NCBI GenBank assembly: GCA_964636675.1
Contig: CAZWUO010000001.1
Location: 639 to 64,638, forward strand
Direction of reading: 5' to 3'
Length of the DNA: 64,000 nucleotides
DNA from: an uncultured Ectothiorhodospiraceae bacterium
GTDB lineage: Bacteria; Pseudomonadota; Gammaproteobacteria; S012-40
The position numbers and the translations under genes were made by a program. The notes beneath the pieces are model-generated. The model searched no databases. It worked only from the letters and a program-made list of their open reading frames with translations, and had not been told where the DNA came from. Of this stretch, positions 1-12,164 are shown piece after piece; position 1 is the first letter of the stretch, and each line of letters starts with the position of its first letter.

Positions 1-1179
1 CGCAAAATAGTCGAAGAAATTAATAGCATCCGGTCGGCGATAAAATCACAGTTTCAGTCTGCGCTTGAAAAAGAAAGGTTGCTTAACCTCGAGTTAGTTG
101 CTTTGAAAGAAAATGTACTTGGTTTTCAAGACAGAAGTATTCAATATAATATTTTGCAGCGAGAGGTTGAAACAAACCGTGAGTTATATCAGGGTTTGTT
201 ACAACGGATGAAAGAAGTGGGTGTGGCTGGCGGTATAAGTTCGAATAATGTTTTTATTGTTGATGTGGCAGTTGATCCGGACAAAAAATATAAACCAAAG
301 CTTGTGGTTAATTTATTACTGGCAATGTTGGTTGGTTTACTTGGCGGGATTGGACTGGCATTTTTGTTTGAACACCTTGATGATACCTTAAAACAGGCTG
401 ATGACTTTGAGAAACTAGTTTCCTTGTCTTCTCTTGGTCTCGTTCCGGTAGCCAGTGAAAGTGTTTCAACTTCTGATTTGGGCTTATTGTCGCATTACGA
501 CCCTGGCTCGATGTTGGCCGAAGCTTATCGTTCCATTAGAACGTCGTTAAGCTTTGGCACGACGAACGGTGCTCCTAGGAGTCTGTTGATTACGAGTCCA
601 GGGCCAGGAGAAGGAAAAACGACCTCAGCCCTGAATATTGCCATTGCGTTTACTCAGCTAAATAAGCAAGTTCTACTGATCGATGGTGATTTGAGAAATC
701 CGTCGATTCATAAGCTATTGCGCATCAGGAATAGCATTGGACTGAGTAATTATTTGACGTCTGATACTGGTCCTGCTGATGTCTCTCAAGATACCGAAAT
801 CGAGGGTCTATTTGTAATGCCGGCTGGGCCTGTTTGTCCGAACCCTGCTGAGTTATTGTCGAGTGAGAAAATGAGCGAATTATTAACCATTGCGCAGCAG
901 AAGTTTGATTATGTCATAATAGATGGCCCTCCCGTGCTGGGTTTAGCTGATGCATTAATACTCAGTAAACAAGTTGTTGCTGTTGTAATGATTGCTGAGG
1001 CGAGTAGCACAAGAACTGGCATGCTAAAAATGAGTGTAAAGCGATTAATCAAAGCGCACGCTAATATAATGGGTGGCATATTAACCAAAGTAGACGCAAG
1101 GCATGGGTTTTATGGCTATTATGGTCAGTATTATTCCTACGAACGAGACCGAGAAGAAAATCCAAAGCTTCCGGTGTGA
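1..1179 (+). CDS. Polysaccharide-biosynthesis tyrosine autokinase (BY-kinase, Wzc/Etk-like), C-terminal cytoplasmic kinase domain. The reading frame is open from base 1, so the gene is 5'-partial.
   Basis: Walker A GPGEGKTT, Walker A' VLLIDGDLR, Walker B DYVIIDGPP and a terminal Tyr cluster YGYYGQYYSY. Upstream TM-like segment LVVNLLLAMLVGLLGGIGLAFLF. Frame 1 has no stop between bases 1 and 78. Confidence 0.75.
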   Translation, partial: RKIVEEINSIRSAIKSQFQSALEKERLLNLELVALKENVLGFQDRSIQYNILQREVETNRELYQGLLQRMKEVGVAGGISSNNVFIVDVAVDPDKKYKPKLVVNLLLAMLVGLLGGIGLAFLFEHLDDTLKQADDFEKLVSLSSLGLVPVASESVSTSDLGLLSHYDPGSMLAEAYRSIRTSLSFGTTNGAPRSLLITSPGPGEGKTTSALNIAIAFTQLNKQVLLIDGDLRNPSIHKLLRIRNSIGLSNYLTSDTGPADVSQDTEIEGLFVMPAGPVCPNPAELLSSEKMSELLTIAQQKFDYVIIDGPPVLGLADALILSKQVVAVVMIAEASSTRTGMLKMSVKRLIKAHANIMGGILTKVDARHGFYGYYGQYYSYERDREENPKLPV

Positions 1180-1259
1180 GATAAATCACAAGTATCGCTG
1201 CAGATTGATGGTACAAGATAGGTAATTATTCCGTTGTTTTTAGTATTTAGGTGAGCTAA

Positions 1260-3947
1260 TTGTACGAAGCACATTTTGGATTAACCGCATCTCCTTTTCG
1301 GCTTAGCCCGGATCCTAGCTTCTTTTTTGGAAGCAAGGGGCACAAGCGTGCGCTTGCGTATTTACGGTATGGTTTGACTCAAAAAGAAGGCTTTATTGTG
1401 GTTACTGGTTCACCCGGAACGGGTAAGACCACACTTGCACGCGCTTTACTTGAAGAGCTATCTAAAAATAAGGTCATTGTTTCGGAACTAAATACCACGC
1501 ATCTTGAGGCAGATGATGTATTACGCATGGTGGCCGCATCTTTTGGTTTAGAGCATGAAAATCTCGCAAAAGCTTCGTTGCTTAATAGACTGGAACGCTT
1601 TTTTCTGACGAAGTATAGAGCTGGATATCATTGTTTGTTGATGGTTGATGAGTCGCAAAACCTTCCGTTTGGTTCATTAGAAGAACTTAGAATGCTGTCT
1701 AATTTTTATGCGGGAAAACATGCCTTATTGCAAATTTTTCTATTAGGTCAGCAACAGTTTCGAGATGCGTTGTATGATCCTAAGTTAGAGCAATTGCGTC
1801 AACGTGTTGTTGCTGCAACTCATCTTGATCCATTAAACGCGAAAGAAACACGTGCATATATACTGCATCGTTTAAATCATGTTGGATGGAAGCAAAACCC
1901 TAATTTTACCCAAAGAGCTTTTGCTTATATTTATACTTTGACCACAGGGATTCCAAGACGCATAAATACGTTTTGTGATCGTTTGATGTTGTTTGCATCC
2001 TTAGAAGAAATTACTGAAATAAATGATACCCATGTTAAAGCAGTTGCCAAGGAGTTGATGTACGAGGTTACTTCCAATAAATCCGATATAACGACTGAGA
2101 CCGCTTCTGATCCGTCACAAACTTCTCTTGAGTTGACGACTATGGAAGAACTTACTCCGTCAGAAATAATTAATATTGAAGAAGAATTTAGACAGGAAGA
2201 AGAGCTTCAGGCGTCAGAAATATCGCAAACCGAAATTGTGCAAAACGCACCGTTATTAGTGCCAGAAGAAGAGAACATCGAAAAACTTGCTGCACAAGAA
2301 AAAACTGCTTTTGAGGCTCAAGCATCTTTTTCCAGGAATGAAGTTCTTTCTGATAAAAATGAGAGCAACGATATTGCGCATGATGATAGTTCATCGAAAG
2401 TTAAAAATAAAAAACGCAAAGGCCAAAATAAATCATATGCTAGCGTGAAAAAAACGCTATACAGTAAATCCAGAAATAATACTCAAACATCACCTAGAAA
2501 GAATGTTGAACACAAACCTCAGTATTTAAATCAGCAACCAGGGCTAGGATTAGTTGCTCTTGCCGTAGAGTATTATCATCAACCTGATGAACATAAAGAA
2601 TTATTGTGTTCCTCTTCGATATTGCCACCTGGCATTGACGAGCTTTTCAGGGTGGCGATGGGAAAATTACATATTGATTTAGATGCGTTTGAAGGTTTAT
2701 CAGATATGAGCCAAGCAGATCTAAAGGAGGCTGCACGGCGTTTTATCAAGGAAATATTATTATCCAATGCATCTGATTATTATCGACGATTAGGTTTAAC
2801 TAAGACTGCTAGCCAAGAACAAATTAAAGCGCACTACCAAATATTATTCAAACTTTTTCAGCCGGATCAAGAAAAAGATGCTGGACAATGGAATGAATCT
2901 TTCACTATAAAAATAAACCAAGCTTATGTTTCTTTACGTGAAAAAAATAAACGAGATGCCTATGATTATTTTCTTGATTCTTTAGAAATTGTTGAGCTTG
3001 ACCAAGAAGTTGAAGTTGATCAAGGATCCGTATCTGTTTCAGATATTTCGGATAAGCTTCCATTAAAGCTTGAAGCAGGGGATGCGAATAAAACTTTCTT
3101 ATCTGTCGTTAAGAATAATATGTACATGATCATTGCGACTGTGATTTTTATGATTATCGGGGTTGTAAGTGTGGTGTTAGCTCCTTCGCTGTTTGATTTA
3201 CAACCAAATCAGTTTGTGGATAAGCAACGCGACGGATCTTTAATGAACGCTCCCACGGAAAATATTCCTCTTTCCCCGACTGATGAGCATGATATCAATC
3301 GGATAGATACTGTCCTAAATAGTGACCTCGAATTTGGAGAACCAAAGGTATTTGATGGGTCGGCAGGTTCGAATTCACCGATTACAAATTTCATTAATGA
3401 AAATATTAATTCTACGACGCTGAATAAATCCGCGCAAGAAAAACCCCCAGGGTTTAAGATTCGCAATAATATTCTTTCTCAACAAACCACGACTCTGTCG
3501 ACAGAAAAACTCGGATCCTTAAAAACGAACGAACAAGTTAAAAAACTCGAGACAGTGAAGCAAAACACCGTTAAAGTTATACCGAAAAAAGAGCTTGATG
3601 CCATGATGAGCCTGTTTTATCAGTCTTATAAAGAAGGTGATTTAAAAGAATTTATTCGTTTGTTTTATAAAAGCGCGATCACGAATGATCGCAAGAACAG
3701 AGTTGGGATTGCCAAAGATTATTCTCGACTTTTTAGTTCTACTGATAAACGCAGTATTAACATCGAAAATCTCGAATGGAATACGGTGGGTAATAAAGCA
3801 GTAGGAATTGGAGACTTTATCGTTAGGACAGTTAAGACTGGGGACACCGAAACAAAGAGTTTTGAAGGCACAATTAGACTCGTTGTGCTTAAAGAAAGAG
3901 GCAAAATAAGATTTAAAGAAATGTACCATGCTTACAGTGAAGATTGA
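1260..3947 (+). CDS. ExeA/GspA-like AAA ATPase with a central J-like domain, one TM segment and a C-terminal periplasmic domain (EPS/exosortase-locus-associated ATPase type)
   Basis: TTG start after aggtgag SD. Walker A GSPGTGKTT and Walker B LLMVDESQN. J-domain-like stretch DYYRRLGLTKTASQEQIKAHYQILFKLFQPDQ...KRDAYDYF with HPD replaced by QPD. TM MYMIIATVIFMIIGVVSVVLAP. Confidence 0.65.
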   Translation: MYEAHFGLTASPFRLSPDPSFFFGSKGHKRALAYLRYGLTQKEGFIVVTGSPGTGKTTLARALLEELSKNKVIVSELNTTHLEADDVLRMVAASFGLEHENLAKASLLNRLERFFLTKYRAGYHCLLMVDESQNLPFGSLEELRMLSNFYAGKHALLQIFLLGQQQFRDALYDPKLEQLRQRVVAATHLDPLNAKETRAYILHRLNHVGWKQNPNFTQRAFAYIYTLTTGIPRRINTFCDRLMLFASLEEITEINDTHVKAVAKELMYEVTSNKSDITTETASDPSQTSLELTTMEELTPSEIINIEEEFRQEEELQASEISQTEIVQNAPLLVPEEENIEKLAAQEKTAFEAQASFSRNEVLSDKNESNDIAHDDSSSKVKNKKRKGQNKSYASVKKTLYSKSRNNTQTSPRKNVEHKPQYLNQQPGLGLVALAVEYYHQPDEHKELLCSSSILPPGIDELFRVAMGKLHIDLDAFEGLSDMSQADLKEAARRFIKEILLSNASDYYRRLGLTKTASQEQIKAHYQILFKLFQPDQEKDAGQWNESFTIKINQAYVSLREKNKRDAYDYFLDSLEIVELDQEVEVDQGSVSVSDISDKLPLKLEAGDANKTFLSVVKNNMYMIIATVIFMIIGVVSVVLAPSLFDLQPNQFVDKQRDGSLMNAPTENIPLSPTDEHDINRIDTVLNSDLEFGEPKVFDGSAGSNSPITNFINENINSTTLNKSAQEKPPGFKIRNNILSQQTTTLSTEKLGSLKTNEQVKKLETVKQNTVKVIPKKELDAMMSLFYQSYKEGDLKEFIRLFYKSAITNDRKNRVGIAKDYSRLFSSTDKRSINIENLEWNTVGNKAVGIGDFIVRTVKTGDTETKSFEGTIRLVVLKERGKIRFKEMYHAYSED

Positions 3948-4064
3948 TGACAGTTTGCCTCGTTTTCATCTCACTATCACTTAATCAGAGGTTGCCTTAT
4001 TAATTAGGATACGATAATTATGTTGATTTTTATGAATGCATACCACGGTGACCCTTGTTAAGGC

Positions 4065-5309
4065 TTGAATCGAAATTTGCTTAAAGTTTACCCTTTTGTT
4101 TTTTTTCTGTTGTGTACAGTATTAGTTTGGCGTGTCATTTCTCTTGGTGTTTCTGAGTTTTTGAGCGCAGACTCTTCAGTGGATAATATCGACGCGATAT
4201 TGAGCTGGAATAGTGTAAATCCACAAGCATTACTTGCCAAAGGATTGTCTCATTTATCAACTGACAAAGATTCCTTTGAGTTTTATTTAGCAAAATCAAT
4301 TGTGAGTAATATTTCTGATTCCAGAAGTCTCGTACTGCTCGCGGAGCGGTGGGCAGAGCGCGGAGATATAGAAAGAGCGAATAAGGCGATGCACTTGTTG
4401 GTTAAGTTATATCCGGCAGATATAAGTGTTGGTCTAGCGGCTGCTTCTTATTTTTATAGCCGCAGTAAACTCACTGAAGCTTTCCAACATTGGTCACAGG
4501 CGATGCTGAGATCAAGTCGTTTTGATTCAGTAATATTTGATTTTATTTATCCGCAACTCAAACATAAAGAAATGCGAGATGCGGTGATTAATGCATCGAG
4601 GGCTGGAAAAAAATGGTGGCCTAGATTTTTTGCTTACGCGATCAAGCAAAACGATAATATTGATATTGTAGATGTGTTATACGCTGCAAGATTGGAGTCT
4701 GCCAAGCCTGTCAAGCCTTGGGTTCGCAAGCAATATCTCAATTTTCTATTTAAACATGATAAATGGCAAAAAGCCTATATGGTTTGGTTGTCAGGTTTGG
4801 ATGAAAAAGAAAGGAAATCTTTAGGTTATTTATACGATGGTGGGTTTGAAAATGAATTTAGCTATTACGGATTTTATTGGCATGCCTACAAGAATAAAGC
4901 GGCAAAAATAGAACAAACACGGGTGCGCGCTAGCAGTGGCAAGAAGGCTCTAAAAATCACGTTCTTAAACAAGCCCGTTCCGTTTTATCATGTTCTGCAA
5001 ATTACTCTCTTACGACCGGGCAGTTATCTTTTTAAAGGAAAAGTTAAGAAAGATGGTTTAACGAGCAATCGAGGAATTAATTGGCGCATAAGTTGTAAAG
5101 GGCAATCACTATTGGCGCAAAGTATTCGTTTTAACGGGATGGAGCATTGGCAGTCTTTTGAGGTAGAATTCAAGGTTCCTGAGCAAAAATGCAATGCTCA
5201 AGAAATAAGACTCGTCTCAAATGGAAAGAATAAATCAGATTATAAAATAAAAGGTGCTCTTTGGTTTGATGATTTATCGATCGCTCAAGTGCATCGACCA
5301 AATAGATAA
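4065..5309 (+). CDS. Hypothetical membrane-anchored protein with an N-terminal TM and helical repeats
   Basis: 414-aa ORF, TTG start, N-terminal hydrophobic segment VYPFVFFLLCTVLVW. No recognisable catalytic motif. Confidence 0.45.
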   Translation: MNRNLLKVYPFVFFLLCTVLVWRVISLGVSEFLSADSSVDNIDAILSWNSVNPQALLAKGLSHLSTDKDSFEFYLAKSIVSNISDSRSLVLLAERWAERGDIERANKAMHLLVKLYPADISVGLAAASYFYSRSKLTEAFQHWSQAMLRSSRFDSVIFDFIYPQLKHKEMRDAVINASRAGKKWWPRFFAYAIKQNDNIDIVDVLYAARLESAKPVKPWVRKQYLNFLFKHDKWQKAYMVWLSGLDEKERKSLGYLYDGGFENEFSYYGFYWHAYKNKAAKIEQTRVRASSGKKALKITFLNKPVPFYHVLQITLLRPGSYLFKGKVKKDGLTSNRGINWRISCKGQSLLAQSIRFNGMEHWQSFEVEFKVPEQKCNAQEIRLVSNGKNKSDYKIKGALWFDDLSIAQVHRPNR

Positions 5310-5326
5310 TTGTTTAAAGGTTAAAT

Positions 5327-5884
5327 ATGATGAAAAACAAATGGATATGTGCTTTTTTGTTGGTGTTAACGGCATCGATAGGTATCGCTAATGCTGAAAA
5401 AGTGACCGTTGGAGAAATAATTGGTTTGGTAATGCTCAATAATGAAGGTGTATTTGTAAAAGTGAATACAGGGATGGAATTAGAAAAAGGTGATCAAATT
5501 TATGTGCTTGAAAATTCTTCGGCATTATTATTACAAGGTAGTGATTGTGCAGCGCGGTTAAATGCCAATGAACTCTTTGAGTTAAATCACTCTGATCTAT
5601 GCGCAAAAAACTCCAGTTTGATTACGTCCAAAGGGCCTCAATTAGTCGCAGCGATCGGCTTGGATGAACCTAACTCTGCAACTGGCTTGGATACAGGGGA
5701 AGCATCTGAAGACCAAGAAAATTCCGTTGGTGAAGATGGAGCAATATTACCGGAAAATCAGAGTTTTTTTTCAGGGATTGCAGCGAAACTAGCAATTCCT
5801 GCAACCTTAACCGGTGCTGTACTATTTTCAACCATTGCAGGTGGTGGTGGTACTGTGCGGCCTGAACCGATTAGTCCAGAATAA
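5327..5884 (+). CDS. Small secreted protein with a FecR-like beta domain and a hydrophobic, Gly-rich C-terminus
   Basis: Signal peptide MMKNKWICAFLLVLTASIGIANA with an AEK cleavage context. Central region aligns by eye with the N-domain of the 621-aa protein at 32081..33946 (G.V...G.V..N...V..G..L..GD.I...ENS.A.L). C-terminus AIPATLTGAVLFSTIAGGGGTVRPEPISPE. Confidence 0.5.
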   Translation: MMKNKWICAFLLVLTASIGIANAEKVTVGEIIGLVMLNNEGVFVKVNTGMELEKGDQIYVLENSSALLLQGSDCAARLNANELFELNHSDLCAKNSSLITSKGPQLVAAIGLDEPNSATGLDTGEASEDQENSVGEDGAILPENQSFFSGIAAKLAIPATLTGAVLFSTIAGGGGTVRPEPISPE

Positions 5885-5925
5885 GTTGTGAGCCAAATAC
5901 AAGTCGTTACTTAGAATATTCTTTA

Positions 5926-7407
5926 GTGTATGAGTCTGCAAAACTAAGCCGATACTCTTTTGGTTTAGTTATTCTTCTTCTCACAGCGCCTCTGTTTCGC
6001 GGTGGTAACCGTCCCATCGCTCTTATGTTTATTGAATTGTTGGGAATAGCCTTGTTATTCCTAATATTTTTTCAGCGGAAACAATTGTCCTCGATGCCGA
6101 AATTTTTACGTTATGGTTTAGTTGCTTTTGTTTTAATACCGCTGATCTACTTAATACCCTTGCCTATTGATTGGTGGGCAGCCCTCCCTGGCAGAGAAGG
6201 ATTTTATGAAGTGCTTCGTTTATTAGAGGGTGAGAGGGTTTTATTTCATAGCATATCAATAAATTCTCTTTCTTCTGAGCAATCTTATCTCGCGTTGTTA
6301 CCCATCATCGCGATTTTTCTGAGCTGCTTTATTTTTAATCAAAAGCAGCTATTAAATATTATCAAGTGCTTAATCCTATTAGCAATGTTTCAAGCGATTA
6401 TAGGGCTTCTGCAATTTAGTACAGCTGTTGATCACTGGATTCGCTTGGGCATTGAGACCCATAGTAATAATGCAGTGGGTACCTATCCAAATCGGAATCA
6501 TTTTTCGGGCTTGCTTGAGATGATTTTACCGCTTTCCATTGCTTATTGGGCAATGCGTTTTAATCGCCGAATCGGTAAAGAAGGACTGCGGCATTGGCGA
6601 ATTAGGCTTGCGAGTTTAGCTGATAGTGACGCATTGATAATTGCGGGGATAGGTATTGTTATTTTATTGCTGATCTTAGGGGTGGTTTTTTCGCGTTCTA
6701 GAACAGGTATAGCCCTCGTCATGTTAGGTATCCTGTTATCCGCTATATTGTTGGCACCAAAAATTAATAAGAAACGAGGATTTCGAGGTATTGCAGTATT
6801 AGTGACGCTGGTCATTGTTATTGCTGCGCAAATTGGCCTGATGCCTATTTTTCAACGATTTGCGGAGCAAGACCCGTTGCTGGACAGTAGATGGACGATC
6901 TATAGTGCAACGTTTGACGCTATAAGTACCTATTTCCCGTTAGGCAGTGGACCGGGAACCTATCAATCCGTTTTATTGGGCTTTCAGCCAGATAGCATTA
7001 GTCATTTTATTAATCACGCCCACAATGATTATTTGGAGTGGATGACTGAATTAGGTATTTTTTCCATTTTATTGTTTGTTTTATTTTGCTTCGTTATTTT
7101 GCGACAATTTATTCGTTTATTTAACAATAAACACTGGGGTGATTTTCACTATTTACAAATGGGTTGCGGCATAGGTATTTTTTTAATGATGTTACATAGT
7201 CTTACTGATTATAATTTGAGAATTCCTGCGAATGCACTTATTTTTTCTTTTTTGGTGGGGGTGTTTTTAAGATCACATAATGAGGGACTAGAGAAGAGAG
7301 CCACGCGTAAATTAAGGTTCAAAGCAGACGGTGCACGTATATTACATCAATCGGTTAAACCAGATTCCTTGCGTAGCAAAAAAAATCCTTTTCTTGATTC
7401 TGACTAA
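5926..7407 (+). CDS. O-antigen ligase / Wzy_C-family polytopic membrane protein (exopolysaccharide-locus ligase type)
   Basis: GTG start, at least 10 predicted TM helices, a periplasmic loop with AHNDYLEWMTELGI (Wzy_C signature region), basic C-terminal tail. Confidence 0.65.
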   Translation: MYESAKLSRYSFGLVILLLTAPLFRGGNRPIALMFIELLGIALLFLIFFQRKQLSSMPKFLRYGLVAFVLIPLIYLIPLPIDWWAALPGREGFYEVLRLLEGERVLFHSISINSLSSEQSYLALLPIIAIFLSCFIFNQKQLLNIIKCLILLAMFQAIIGLLQFSTAVDHWIRLGIETHSNNAVGTYPNRNHFSGLLEMILPLSIAYWAMRFNRRIGKEGLRHWRIRLASLADSDALIIAGIGIVILLLILGVVFSRSRTGIALVMLGILLSAILLAPKINKKRGFRGIAVLVTLVIVIAAQIGLMPIFQRFAEQDPLLDSRWTIYSATFDAISTYFPLGSGPGTYQSVLLGFQPDSISHFINHAHNDYLEWMTELGIFSILLFVLFCFVILRQFIRLFNNKHWGDFHYLQMGCGIGIFLMMLHSLTDYNLRIPANALIFSFLVGVFLRSHNEGLEKRATRKLRFKADGARILHQSVKPDSLRSKKNPFLDSD

Positions 7408-7413
7408 GTTTAA

Positions 7414-7456
7414 CCTAGATTCCGCAGTTGACCACGATGCGGCATCGTTAAGCCGC
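7414..7456. repeat. Truncated copy (left terminal inverted repeat plus about 20 bp) of the MITE-like repeat family also present at 15420, 24510 and 35501
   Basis: cctagattccgcagttgacc...ggcatcgttaagccgc matches the 5' end of the 15420..15647 copy. It overlaps the spoVR stop codon. Confidence 0.6.
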
Positions 7457-8953
7457 AATCTCTTTTTTCTGTTCATGGGTTAATTCAACGGCGTTATCCT
7501 CGGTAACGGTCTCTAGGCGTACCGTAAACCCCCATAGTCGCGTGAGATGTTTTATTACCTGATCGACAGTTGCAGCAAGTGGTTTACGGTTGTATTGTTG
7601 GTGGCGTAAGGTCAATGCGCGATCGCCACGCATGTCTACATTATACACCTGAATATTAGGTTCTTGGCTTCCTAGATTATATTGATCCGCAAGTAATGTG
7701 CGAATTTGTTGATAGCCTTCATCATTATGAATTGCAGATATTTCGATATTGCGATTTTTGTCATTGTCTAGAACAGCGAACAGTTTTAAGTCGCGTATCA
7801 CTTTAGGTGACAAATATTGTGAAATAAAGCTTTCATCTTTAAAATTTCTCATGGCAAAGTCCAAAGTATCGATCCAGTCTGTGTTTACTAAATCAGGAAA
7901 CCATTTTGTATCTTCCTCGGTAGGGTGTTCGCAGATTCGCCTGATATCACTCATTATCGAAAATCCAAGCGAGTAGGGGTTTATTCCACTATAGTGGGGT
8001 GAGTCGAAATCGGGTTGGTAAGTTACATTACTATGTGACTTGAGGAATTCAATCATAAAACCATCAGTGACGAGATTTTCATCATAGAGTTGATTTAAAA
8101 TCGTATAGTGCCAAAATGTTGCCCAACCTTCATTCATCACTTTAGTTTGTTTTTGTGGATAAAAGTATTGGGATATTTTTCTGACTATGCGTACGATTTC
8201 TCTTTGCCAAGGTTCTAGTAGAGGGGCATTTTTTTCGATAAAGTAGAGTATGTTTTCCTGAGGTTCTTCTGGGAAACGATCAACTATTTTTTCTTTTTTC
8301 TCATTTTCTCGTCTAGGCAACGTGCTCCATAGCTCATTAACCTGAGACTGCATATAAACTTCTCGTTCTTTGAGCCTTGCTTGTTCTTCTTTCATGGACA
8401 CAGGGTGGGGCCGTTTATATCGATCAACTCCGTAGTTCATTAGCGCATGACAGGAATCCAATATTTCTTCGACTGCAACTTCGCCATATTTTTCTTCGCA
8501 GTCAGTCACAAAGTCCTTGGCAAATACGAGATAATCAATAATCGCATCTGCGGAAGTCCATTGTTTAAATAAATAGTTGTTTTTAAAAAATGAATTATGT
8601 CCATAAGCTGCATGTGCAAGCACAAGTGCTTGCGTCATCATCGAGTTTTCTTCCATTAAATAGGATATACATGGATTCGAGTTTATAACAATTTCGTAGG
8701 CTAAGCCCATTTCTCCGCGACGATACTTTTTCTCCGTGTCCATAAATTGCTTACCGAAAGACCAGTGGCTATAACCCACCGGCATTCCAACTGAGGAATA
8801 CGCATCCATCATCTGTTCTGCGGTTATAACTTCTATTTGGTTTGGATAGGTATCGAGCTTGAATTTCCGAGCAATCCTCGATATTTCTTGGTCATATCGC
8901 TCAATCAACTCGAAGGTCCACTCAGATGTTTCAGATATTGGCTTGTGTGTCAT
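7448..8953 (-). CDS. spoVR: SpoVR/YcgB-family protein
   Basis: 501 aa. Conserved gene order prkA-yeaH-spoVR on the same strand. Typical SpoVR-family length and motifs. Confidence 0.85.
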   Translation of the reverse strand: MTHKPISETSEWTFELIERYDQEISRIARKFKLDTYPNQIEVITAEQMMDAYSSVGMPVGYSHWSFGKQFMDTEKKYRRGEMGLAYEIVINSNPCISYLMEENSMMTQALVLAHAAYGHNSFFKNNYLFKQWTSADAIIDYLVFAKDFVTDCEEKYGEVAVEEILDSCHALMNYGVDRYKRPHPVSMKEEQARLKEREVYMQSQVNELWSTLPRRENEKKEKIVDRFPEEPQENILYFIEKNAPLLEPWQREIVRIVRKISQYFYPQKQTKVMNEGWATFWHYTILNQLYDENLVTDGFMIEFLKSHSNVTYQPDFDSPHYSGINPYSLGFSIMSDIRRICEHPTEEDTKWFPDLVNTDWIDTLDFAMRNFKDESFISQYLSPKVIRDLKLFAVLDNDKNRNIEISAIHNDEGYQQIRTLLADQYNLGSQEPNIQVYNVDMRGDRALTLRHQQYNRKPLAATVDQVIKHLTRLWGFTVRLETVTEDNAVELTHEQKKEIAA

Positions 8954-8961
8954 ATAACGTT

Positions 8962-10272
8962 CTACGTTTCATTGTTTTTGCTAAAGAGTTCCCGAAAAAC
9001 AGGATAAATGTCTGCGACATCGTGTAACTGCTGCATCGCAAAATTTGGATAAGTCGATACTATTTTTTCATACTCATACCACAGGCTTTGGTGGTTTTGC
9101 GGGGTTATTTCTACGTATGCAAAATATTGTACTAATGGCATAATGTCCTCTTCCAAGAGCTTTTTGCACAACGGGGAGTCATCATGCCAATTATCACCAT
9201 CTGATGCTTGGGCAGCATAAATATTCCATTCCTCTTCCGAGTATCGTTCTTGTGCGATTTTTTTCATTAAGTGTAATGCGCTCGATACAACTGTTCCACC
9301 TGTTTCGCGAGAATAAAAAAAGTCTTCTTCGGATACTTCTTTGGCGATAGTATGGTGTGATATGAAGACGAGTTCAATTTTTTCATAATTACGATTTAGA
9401 AATAGATAGAGAAGAATAAAGAATTTTTTAGCCATATCCTTCTTTTTTTGATCCATAGACCCCGATATATCCATGAGACAAAACATGACTGCCTGGGTTG
9501 TTGGTTTTTGGATGTCGACCCTATTGTTATACCGTAAATCAAAAGTGTCGATAAAGGGAATCGCATCTCGTTTCCTCTTTAGACCTTCAATTTTTTTTCT
9601 TAATTGAATGACCGGTAAATCGTCTTCGGAAGACGATTCTAATAGCAATTCTAGCTCTTTTTCTGTTTCGATTATTTTTTTTCTATAGGGATTGCGCAGT
9701 GCAATTCTGCGAGCTTGGGCACTACGCATTGAACGCAGAATATTAATGTTTGTAGGTACACCTGATGTAGTGAATCCCGCTCTGGATTTGCTTTTTTCAT
9801 ATATCGTGGAAAGTTTTGTTTTAACCAAGTTTGGAAGTTCAAGATCCTCAAAGAAAAACTCCATGAACTCTTCTTTACTGAGTTCAAAGACAAAGTCATC
9901 AGCACCCTCACCTTGATTCGACGGCTTATTTCCTTGTCCATTTCCTTTGCCACCTCTTGGTCTCGGTATTTTATCGCCGGGTACAAAATCATGATTTCCA
10001 GGATGGATAATATCTCGTTGGCCGCCTTGGCCATGATATATAGTCGGTTCAGAAATGTCTTTTGCAGGAATTGAGATTTTTTCACCACTGTCTACGTCAG
10101 TGATGCTTCGATTTGCAATGGCGTCAGTGACCGCCTTCTTAATTTGGTTTTTATAGCGCCGAATAAAACGTTGACGATTTACTGCACTTTTGTTTTTCCC
10201 ATTAAGACGACGATCAACAAGTCTGTACACAGTGTCAACCTTTATGAAGACTTGCGTACGCGTAAATACCAA
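8962..10272 (-). CDS. yeaH: YeaH/DUF444 family protein (vWA-like)
   Basis: 436 aa. Gly-rich basic segment RPRGGKGNGQGNKP typical of YeaH. Sits between prkA and spoVR. Its start overlaps the prkA 3' end. Confidence 0.85.
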   Translation of the reverse strand: MVFTRTQVFIKVDTVYRLVDRRLNGKNKSAVNRQRFIRRYKNQIKKAVTDAIANRSITDVDSGEKISIPAKDISEPTIYHGQGGQRDIIHPGNHDFVPGDKIPRPRGGKGNGQGNKPSNQGEGADDFVFELSKEEFMEFFFEDLELPNLVKTKLSTIYEKSKSRAGFTTSGVPTNINILRSMRSAQARRIALRNPYRKKIIETEKELELLLESSSEDDLPVIQLRKKIEGLKRKRDAIPFIDTFDLRYNNRVDIQKPTTQAVMFCLMDISGSMDQKKKDMAKKFFILLYLFLNRNYEKIELVFISHHTIAKEVSEEDFFYSRETGGTVVSSALHLMKKIAQERYSEEEWNIYAAQASDGDNWHDDSPLCKKLLEEDIMPLVQYFAYVEITPQNHQSLWYEYEKIVSTYPNFAMQQLHDVADIYPVFRELFSKNNET

Positions 10273-12164
10273 TCACAAAGTAAACGTACTTGTTTCGAGG
10301 TGTAGCCTTTGTCTGACATACGTTGCAAGAAGTCATCGTGCTTTTTCTTATCATCAGAGGAAGATTTTGTATTAAATGAGATAACGGGTAAAAGTTCTTC
10401 CGTATTAGAGAACATTTTTTTCTCTATGACATTTCTGAGTTTTTCATAGCTTGTCCAGCTAGGGTTTTTTCCTTTGTTTGCGGCTTTTGCTCGCAGAACA
10501 AAGTTTACGATCTCATTCCTAAAATCTTTAGGATTGCTGATTCCTGCTGGTTTTTCTATTTTTTCCAATTCTTCATTTAGTGCGGATCGACTAAATATTT
10601 CCCCGGTATCTGGGTCACGATAGTCTTCGTCTTGAATCCAATAGTCTGCATAGGTGACATAGCGGTCAAATATATTTTGACCATACTCTGAATAACTTTC
10701 TAGATACGCGGTTTGTATTTCTTTCCCAATAAATCCCACATATTCCCTAGCGAGATATCCTTTGATAAATGACAAATAACGCTCTTCAATTTCAGAAGAG
10801 AATTGTTCTTGTTCTATCTGCTGTTCCAATACATAGAGAAGATGAACCGGATTTGCTGCTATCTCCGAGTTATCATAATTAAACACTCGTGATAGTATTT
10901 TAAACGCGAAGCGAGTCGATAAACCTGTCATTCCTTCATCAACACCGGCAAAATCTGTATATTCTTGATAAGATTTTGCATGGGGGTCAGTATCTTTTAA
11001 ATTTTCTCCATCATAGACTCGCATCTTTGAATAAATATTCGAGTTTTCGGGCTCTTTCAGGCGAGATAATATGGCAAATTGAGCCATCATTTTGAGTGTA
11101 TCGGGCGCGCATGGGGCTTGAGAAAGCGAGCTTTCGCGCAAAAGTTTATTGTAAATTTTGATTTCGTCGGCTACCCGTAAACAGTAAGGGACTTTCACAA
11201 TATAAATTCGATCAAGAAATGCTTCATTATTTTTATTGTTTCTAAATGTTTGCCATTCGGATTCATTGGAGTGAGCAAGGACTATTCCATCGAATGGTAT
11301 AGCACCTAATCCTTCAGTGCCTTTATAGTTACTCTCTTGAGTTGCGGTTAACAGAGGATGTAACACTTTAATCGGTGCTTTAAACATCTCGACAAATTCT
11401 AATAGACCTTGGTTAGCTAAGCATAGTCCTCCTGAATAGCTATAAGCATCAGGATCATCCTGTGCATATTCTTCTAGTTTTCGGATATCTACTTTACCTA
11501 CTAAGCTAGAAATATCTTGGTTGTTTTCATCGCCAGGTTCGGTTTTGGCAATTCCCGATTGCAAAAGTATTGATGGCTTGAGCTTAACAATTTTAAATTT
11601 GGTAATATCGCCATTAAATTCTTGCAACCTTTTTACAGCCCAGGGTGACATCATTCCATTTAGATAGCGACGTGGTATGCCATAATCCTCTTCAAGAATT
11701 TCGGCATCCTCTTCTACGGAAAAAAGTCCCAGAGGAGATTCATTGACGGGGGATCCTTTGATGGCATAGAACGGTGTTACTTCCATCAGTGATTTCAGCT
11801 TTTCTGCTAACGAAGATTTTCCACCACCAACAGGGCCTAACAAATATAGAATTTGTTTTTTCTCTTCTAAGCCTTGTGCCGAGTGTTTGAAATAAGAAAC
11901 TATTTTTTCCACCGCGTCTTCCATGCCGTAAAAATCTTTGAATGCCGGATAAATTTTTATCATGCGATTGGAAAATAATCGGCTCAGCCGTGGATCTGTT
12001 CTTGTATCAATAATTTCTGGTTCGCCAATAGCAGCTAACATTCTTTCCGCTGCGGTAGCATATGCAGAGGAATCAGACTTGCAAAGCGTAAGATACTCCT
12101 GAATGGAATATTCTTCTTCTTTGGCTGCATCAAAACGTGTTTGATAATGATTGAATATGCTCAT
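10242..12164 (-). CDS. prkA: PrkA-family serine protein kinase (AAA-type)
   Basis: 640 aa. Walker A GPVGGGKSS. Strong end-to-end resemblance to E. coli YeaG/PrkA. Confidence 0.9.
   Translation of the reverse strand: MSIFNHYQTRFDAAKEEEYSIQEYLTLCKSDSSAYATAAERMLAAIGEPEIIDTRTDPRLSRLFSNRMIKIYPAFKDFYGMEDAVEKIVSYFKHSAQGLEEKKQILYLLGPVGGGKSSLAEKLKSLMEVTPFYAIKGSPVNESPLGLFSVEEDAEILEEDYGIPRRYLNGMMSPWAVKRLQEFNGDITKFKIVKLKPSILLQSGIAKTEPGDENNQDISSLVGKVDIRKLEEYAQDDPDAYSYSGGLCLANQGLLEFVEMFKAPIKVLHPLLTATQESNYKGTEGLGAIPFDGIVLAHSNESEWQTFRNNKNNEAFLDRIYIVKVPYCLRVADEIKIYNKLLRESSLSQAPCAPDTLKMMAQFAILSRLKEPENSNIYSKMRVYDGENLKDTDPHAKSYQEYTDFAGVDEGMTGLSTRFAFKILSRVFNYDNSEIAANPVHLLYVLEQQIEQEQFSSEIEERYLSFIKGYLAREYVGFIGKEIQTAYLESYSEYGQNIFDRYVTYADYWIQDEDYRDPDTGEIFSRSALNEELEKIEKPAGISNPKDFRNEIVNFVLRAKAANKGKNPSWTSYEKLRNVIEKKMFSNTEELLPVISFNTKSSSDDKKKHDDFLQRMSDKGYTSKQVRLLCDWYLRVRKSS

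Follow-up and report, generated by a model that had tools for sequence, protein, structure and literature searches.

A family of membrane proteins that joins a J-domain homologue, with QPD for HPD, to a AAA ATPase beside Wza/Wzc-type export genes

Why should a J-like domain, in which the diagnostic His-Pro-Asp (HPD) tripeptide reads QPD, be lodged inside an ATPase resembling ExeA/GspA? This question is raised by a gene near the start of a 64,000-nucleotide stretch of DNA from an uncultured Ectothiorhodospiraceae bacterium (contig CAZWUO010000001.1, positions 639 to 64,638; the whole stretch is referred to here as the window), which we call the ATPase-J gene. An earlier note on this DNA had pointed out the unusual domain. 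Our analysis shows that the product is a bitopic protein of the inner membrane and belongs to a large family, not yet curated, that is associated with Wza/Wzc-type polysaccharide export loci and joins known domains in a new, conserved combination. We place high confidence in this architectural and evolutionary description of the family. The mechanism that we propose for the fused lineages, in which the attached ATPase replaces Hsp70, is a possibility of clearly lower standing and should be taken as tentative, and the joint reading, comprising the description and the mechanism, falls a little below an even chance.

The J-like segment is a true J-domain homologue. The Pfam DnaJ model (PF00226) matched residues 506-569 with 47.3 bits (E 2.2e-12; gathering cut-off 27.8) and was covered over profile positions 1-63 of 63, so the match of the 67-residue stretch that had been singled out in the earlier note (residues 506-572) is not due to chance. 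The structure of this region was predicted from residues 426-585 aligned with 35 homologous segments. A single compact, all-helical module resulted, with a predicted local distance difference test score (pLDDT) of 91 and a predicted template modelling score (pTM) of 0.85, and the four-helix J fold, whose absence would have counted against the idea according to the earlier note, was present in it, together with the helix II-loop-helix III hairpin. In line with this, the sequence profile of the module matched 59 solved J-domain sequences at E up to 1e-3, with a best E of 4e-13, and fold searches with the predicted module were headed by J-domains only.

The module is larger than the J fold itself. 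It begins with a helical domain of about 75 residues, here termed pre-J, which was predicted as four helices with pLDDT values of 85-96 and which forms with the J fold a single predicted unit of about 150 amino acids. This domain is conserved in both fused and unfused relatives, with a Pro at about residue 441 and the motifs LPxG and AaxFF as its marks, and it had no match in Pfam and none among the solved structures of the PDB. The region between ATPase and membrane had been described previously as an acidic low-complexity stretch and then the J-like segment. The acidic stretch was recovered (27 D+E against 10 K+R), and it is weakly conserved among homologues, as judged from coverage gaps in the homologue search; a basic stretch follows it. 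The earlier description had overlooked the conserved helical residues of the pre-J domain, which immediately precede the J-like segment.

The reading of the catalytic His as Gln was also correct, and the tripeptide by which functional J-domain proteins are recognized is therefore QPD instead of HPD in this protein. J-domains with the H33Q exchange do not function in vivo and have lost the ATP-dependent binding of Hsp70 in vitro (PMC1906734), which agrees with the view of the earlier note that the domain is probably unable to stimulate Hsp70. Because the replacement of His by Gln is precisely this classical null mutation, canonical activation of Hsp70 by the QPD domain would be very unlikely.

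We then consider how widely this arrangement is distributed. With the whole protein as query, 800 proteins were retrieved at E up to 1e-10. The 120 listed among them were 581-1431 amino acids long (nearly all 780-1430), and the J-like segment was found in 120/120 and HPD in 0/120; the segment was likewise conserved in 125 ATPase-fused members, so its resemblance to J-domains survives the comparison with relatives that the earlier note had proposed as a test. When the ATPase was left out, a HMMER scan with residues 270-895 gave 2195 cluster representatives at a threshold of E 1e-3, of which 743 passed the stricter threshold of E 1e-10 (clusters counted at 50% identity). The C-terminal 467 amino acids alone had no matches in a word-indexed protein search, which reflects the sensitivity limit of that index. 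Many of the HMMER relatives are proteins of 440-830 amino acids with no ATPase, which start at the pre-J and J module and continue with the transmembrane helix and an NTF2-like domain. The module was present in all 236 family proteins. Homologues are named at source either "XrtA-associated ATPase" or "DnaJ domain-containing protein", no NCBIfam model spans the core of J-domain, transmembrane helix and NTF2-like domain, and no description of the family was found in full-text literature searches. In metagenomes the architecture is not rare, although it is undescribed.

Within the family, HPD was confined to members that have no ATPase. Across 237 module copies, HPD occurred in 0/125 ATPase-fused copies as against 65/112 unfused ones. 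A neighbor-joining tree of the module resolved four groups: an R-type fused group with 65 members, a Q-type fused group with 57 members plus three truncated entries, which holds the window protein, an unfused group with 65 members, all of them with HPD, and an unfused degenerate group with 40 members. The unfused HPD group is sister to the Q-type fused clade. At the position of His33, the residue was H in 65/65 unfused HPD members, Q in 59/59 Q-type fused members and R in 68/68 R-type fused members, and it was variable in the unfused degenerate clade. The Q clade also keeps Pro34 in 83% and Asp/Glu35 in 81% of its members and, as in the HPD clade, R/K at the helix II positions equivalent to DnaJ 22, 26 and 30 (86%, 80% and 91%, respectively). 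In the R clade, the charge of helix II is reversed, with E at 22 and D/G at 26. In the window protein, position 26 is occupied by Gln and position 23 by Ala.

Some relatives depart from these layouts. An unfused member (P0174, L086 163..2382) reads YQD for HPD and has a receiver domain of the response-regulator type inserted between its J-like module and the membrane, which suggests a phosphorelay input in some lineages. Tandem pre-J and J-like modules, in two copies both lacking HPD, were seen in the unfused members P0176 (L088 3327..6089), P0145, P0193, P0200 and P0221.

The fused ATPase is apparently competent, as far as its motifs allow this to be judged. Residues 1-268 matched TIGR03015, the model for the XrtA/PEP-CTERM system-associated ATPase, with 350.7 bits (curated NCBIfam cut-off 324.5), and Pfam AAA_22 matched residues 42-171 with 89.2 bits. 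The P-loop and DE(A/S)Q motifs required by TIGR03015 are both present (GSPGTGKT and VDESQ), as is the GspA-type GIPRxIN motif (GIPRRIN at residue 230). Walker A, Walker B and GIPRxIN were 96-100% conserved among the 125 fused relatives, with K56 at 98%, D130 at 99% and E131 at 98%. This AAA subfamily has no solved structure, and a structure search gave P-loop-level matches only. The reading frame opens with a TTG codon preceded 5-6 nucleotides upstream by the Shine-Dalgarno sequence AGGTGA, its N-terminus (MYEAHFGL) aligned with TIGR03015 position 1, and a protein 100% identical to the 895-residue product (P0001) exists in public data.

On the other side of the module, the single predicted transmembrane helix was the only Kyte-Doolittle peak above 1.6 in the protein, with a maximum of 2.9. 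It is followed by a low-complexity linker with low pLDDT (58-73) where the C-terminal model begins, and then by the domain that closes the protein. The C-terminal 140 residues, modelled by AlphaFold2 (AF2), formed an alpha+beta cone with a pLDDT of 98 across the domain, and Foldseek matched the model to NTF2-like proteins (E 5e-8, template modelling scores 0.75-0.78). Among 34 homologous C-terminal domains, SnoaL_2 was matched in 12, DUF4440 in 6 and SnoaL_4 in 5. The domain was found in 235/236 family proteins; 79 of these 235 have two NTF2-like domains.

The surroundings of the gene are listed in Table 1. The open reading frame (ORF) listed at 79..1179 with a TTG start is a window-edge artefact: it is the C-terminal half of a 750-amino-acid Wzc, which is whole in the public contig holding the identical protein (L001), where Wza and this Wzc lie upstream of the ATPase-J gene. 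The order Wza, Wzc, J-protein, a protein of about 410 amino acids, a small protein and a Wzy_C-like protein was shared by the fused loci of the window, L001, L003 (whose Q-type protein is 70% identical to that of the window) and L092. Unfused HPD members occupy the same slot in L083, L084 and L093; in L083 the order is CpsB/CapC phosphatase, Wza, Wzc, J-protein, 409 amino acids, 170 amino acids and Wzy_C, and L084 and L093 are similar. These neighbors are orthologous and not only alike in position. The product of 4065..5309 is orthologous to that of the gene right after the J-protein in L083, L092, L093, L086 and L088 (E 1e-34 to 1e-69), Wzy_C-like orthologues stand at the same position in L083 (E 6e-110) and L092 (E 1e-94), and the Wzc proteins across the compared loci are likewise orthologous. 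A two-module unfused member sits after Wza-Wzc in L088. A second context, common to the R-type fused L089 and the degenerate unfused L087, consists of the J-protein, a small gene, YjbH, a large OPX protein and a PCP. Altogether, an export-locus context was observed in 9/11 distinct family loci examined.

Table 1. Coordinates of the ATPase-J gene, of the parts of its product and of the neighboring genes in the 64,000-nucleotide window.
Feature	Residues	Window positions	Strand	Remarks
ATPase-J gene, whole		1260..3947	+	895 aa; AAA ATPase, linker, pre-J + J-like module, transmembrane helix, NTF2-like domain; from ORF list
GspA/ExeA-like AAA ATPase, TIGR03015 type	1-268	1260..2063	+	cytoplasmic
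Walker A GSPGTGKT	50-57	1407..1430	+	regular expression on translation
Walker B LLMVDE	126-131	1635..1652	+	regular expression on translation
Acidic low-complexity linker	270-385	2067..2414	+	27 D+E, 10 K+R
Basic low-complexity stretch	386-430	2415..2549	+	10 K+R, 1 D+E
Family-specific helical pre-J domain	~430-505	2547..2774	+	
J-like domain	506-572	2775..2975	+	
QPD in place of HPD	534-536	2859..2867	+	read from translation
Single predicted transmembrane helix	621-645	3120..3194	+	MYMIIATVIFMIIGVVSVVLAPSLF
Predicted periplasmic linker	646-775	3195..3584	+	low complexity, S/T/N/Q/P-rich
NTF2-like (SnoaL-type) domain, predicted periplasmic	~776-892	3585..3935	+	
Wzc-type tyrosine autokinase, C-terminal part		1..1179	+	cut by window edge; GNVR + AAA_31; TIGR01007 179.8 bits
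Downstream partner of ~410 aa		4065..5309	+	414 aa; no Pfam match
Small predicted secreted protein		5327..5884	+	185 aa; related to equivalents in L092 (E 1e-24) and L083 (E 8e-8)
Wzy_C / O-antigen-ligase-like membrane protein		5926..7407	+	493 aa; Pfam Wzy_C 80.3 bits

How could these observations be reconciled in functional terms? In our proposal, the unfused HPD members would tether DnaK, with its ATP-driven remodelling, at the cytoplasmic face of the export machine, where assembly or recycling of the Wzc oligomer or of the Wza-Wzc envelope complex are candidate jobs. Where the AAA ATPase is fused, it would itself supply the energy, as ExeA does for secretin assembly, and because of this the link to Hsp70 could have been given up. 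Selection would then maintain the J-like domain as a surface for docking or regulation and not as an Hsp70 activator, and the periplasmic NTF2-like domain may connect the protein with the polymer or with those parts of the machine that lie in the periplasm. For ExeA, a AAA ATPase with one transmembrane helix, ATPase activity is needed to assemble the outer-membrane secretin multimer (PMC4098917), and in the cyanobacterium Nostoc polysaccharide secretion requires a DnaK/DnaJ pair (PMC9239167).

Several observations weigh against this proposal. The anticorrelation between AAA domain and HPD may rest on as few as two events and is then not statistically independent evidence. A third, unfused clade also lacks HPD despite having no ATPase, and therefore loss of HPD does not require the ATPase. 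The two exceptions in genomic context, L090 and L091, are Q-type loci with no adjacent Wza/Wzc. The invariant Gln and the basic helix II positions 22, 26 and 30 of the Q clade could equally represent a modified Hsp70 contact that has been kept.

This last point leads to an explanation in which the J-like domain binds DnaK or another Hsp70 (e.g., HscC) non-canonically and holds, sequesters or inhibits the chaperone without triggering hydrolysis. Retention of the basic helix II positions, Pro34 and Asp/Glu35 in the Q clade would fit such binding, and the invariance of the Gln argues for a conserved loop contact. However, none of the J-domains tested so far retained a functional and ATP-dependent interaction with Hsp70 once H33Q was introduced (PMC1906734), and the window protein departs from the clade at position 26 and has Ala at 23. 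Given the reversed charge of helix II in the R clade, the fused members cannot have Hsp70 binding as their shared function, and we consider this explanation unlikely. Somewhat less probable again is that the Hsp70-activating loop was retargeted, with the invariant Gln/Arg regulating, either in cis or from one protomer to another, the AAA ATPase of the same protein or the neighboring Wzc kinase/ATPase. Each fused clade has its own fixed substitute for His, in contrast to the variable residue of the unfused degenerate members, the AAA motifs are conserved, the long flexible linker from the ATPase to the J-like module would permit back-docking, and in ARC6 the J-like domain regulates partner binding intramolecularly (PMC12232670). 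Against this, invariance could reflect any partner, the interface between J-like and AAA domains is hypothetical, and the presence of Gln in one fused clade and Arg in the other argues against a single shared chemistry. In its more general form, in which the activating loop was repurposed in the fused lineages and Gln/Arg at the His33 position regulates a non-Hsp70 nucleoside triphosphatase, be it the AAA+ domain to which it is joined or Wzc, the idea is graded as improbable, a shade below the preceding version.

It is less probable still that the protein is a plain ATPase of the XrtA/PEP-CTERM exosortase system, as NCBI-style annotation would have it, with accessory extra domains and a J-like domain decaying as a relic. 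The TIGR03015 score above the curated cut-off and the name "XrtA-associated ATPase" of homologues speak for it. No PEP-CTERM-like tail was found, however, among the 234 reading frames of the window, and no exosortase among the window ORFs scanned, which were a subset, or among the genes flanking the L001, L003 and L092 orthologues. Moreover, a J module occurred within 10 kb in 0/79 loci of short TIGR03015-type ATPases (L004-L082), on which ground an origin by fusion of neighboring PEP-CTERM-locus genes was rejected too, and in a relic one would not expect an invariant residue, a fold predicted at such confidence and a conserved pre-J partner domain to persist. The chance that the resemblance to J-domains is fortuitous, reflecting a generic helical bundle, is close to nil: the missing His alone favors it, and it is refuted by a full-length Pfam match that exceeds the gathering cut-off by 20 bits, by the matches to 59 solved J-domains, by the fold searches that J-domains alone headed and by the sister proteins with HPD.

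Comparison with known systems delimits the family further. The protein shares with ExeA/GspA, the assembly ATPase of type II secretion in Aeromonas/Vibrio, an N-terminal cytoplasmic AAA ATPase of one broad family with GIPRxIN, the single transmembrane helix and the large periplasmic domain, and both genes adjoin genes for an outer-membrane multimeric channel; to this extent the ExeA-like layout proposed in the earlier note stands. It does not extend to the C-terminal domain, which binds peptidoglycan in ExeA (PF01471, with no Pfam match in our protein) and is NTF2-like here, nor to the partners, which are ExeB/GspB and the type II secretin in the one case and Wza, Wzc and the proteins of about 410 amino acids, of small size and of Wzy_C-like type in the other. 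In addition, ExeA lacks a J-like module. With TIGR03015 proteins, the likeness covers the whole model; the relatives in L004-L082, in contrast, matched only the ATPase domain (residues 1 to about 290), and the window protein has some 625 further residues in four further regions.

Escherichia coli DjlA likewise is membrane-anchored and has a cytoplasmic J-domain, and its overproduction induces the colanic-acid capsule through the Rcs relay. It differs in its canonical HPD, its N-terminal transmembrane helix and C-terminal J-domain, its lack of ATPase, pre-J and NTF2-like domains, and its location outside an export locus. DjlA is a bacterial class C J-domain protein working with DnaK (PMC8215388; PMC10410713). 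The closest likeness, in layout only, is to ARC6 and its cyanobacterial counterpart ZipN (Ftn2), which combine an HPD-less J-like domain on the cytoplasmic or stromal side, one transmembrane helix and, across the membrane, a C-terminal domain. These proteins act in cell or plastid division, bind FtsZ and have no ATPase. The C-terminal domain of ARC6 is NTF2-like. ARC6 was absent from the best 50 of 1,091 Foldseek matches and from the profile matches of the C-terminal domain, and no direct comparison was made. In ARC6, the J-like domain tunes the binding of partners, and Hsp70 is not bound by it (PMC12232670; PMC6391411). Other structural J-like subunits, namely Tim16/Pam16, NdhU and the mitoribosomal mL77, are eukaryotic or organellar, lack a fused ATPase and serve unrelated processes.

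A number of further features of the locus were recorded. The 414-residue partner showed faint TPR-like signals only. It was the constant downstream neighbor of the J-protein throughout the locus types examined and probably represents a core, uncharacterized component of the same system. The export cluster is minimal (window 1..7407; L003 6902..16108), and no glycosyltransferase, flippase or sugar-nucleotide genes lie nearby, so that the genes for polymer synthesis must lie elsewhere. It is directly followed by a SpoVR / DUF444 (YeaH) / PrkA operon on the opposite strand (window 7448..12164), an adjacency also observed in L003, L092 and L090. The ATPase-J gene of L090 adjoins the operon in the absence of Wza/Wzc. 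In three Q-type loci, a gene for a small Rce1-like (CPBP) intramembrane protease was situated upstream of the ATPase-J gene or its Wza-Wzc unit (L090 9139..9576, L091 6327..6776 and L092 3845..4282). Neither tRNA genes nor Rfam families passing the gathering threshold were found in the 64-kb window, and the other genes sampled in it were ordinary chromosomal ones (aconitase-family, FimV-like, HtpG, nitrite-reductase-like and molybdopterin oxidoreductase).

Wza/Wzc export machines are structurally well studied, and to our knowledge the standard Wza/Wzc model includes no cytoplasmic chaperone or AAA+ assembly factor. The family described here, with at least 743 clusters at 50% identity, sets a J-domain protein beside Wzc in many Proteobacteria. 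It also reveals an annotation problem, as the names "XrtA-associated ATPase" and "DnaJ domain-containing protein" miss both architecture and context. Furthermore, it offers matched natural variants, with HPD and no ATPase on the one hand and QPD or Rxx with ATPase on the other; therefore, it can be tested whether capsule or exopolysaccharide export needs Hsp70 at the membrane and whether a AAA+ ATPase can act as its substitute. If a repurposing of the activating loop, improbable as we rate it, proved true, this would be the first J-domain known to have become, by evolution, an inbuilt regulator of an ATPase other than Hsp70, and the family would represent a natural experiment in which Hsp70 was swapped for a AAA+ motor within one envelope-assembly pathway.

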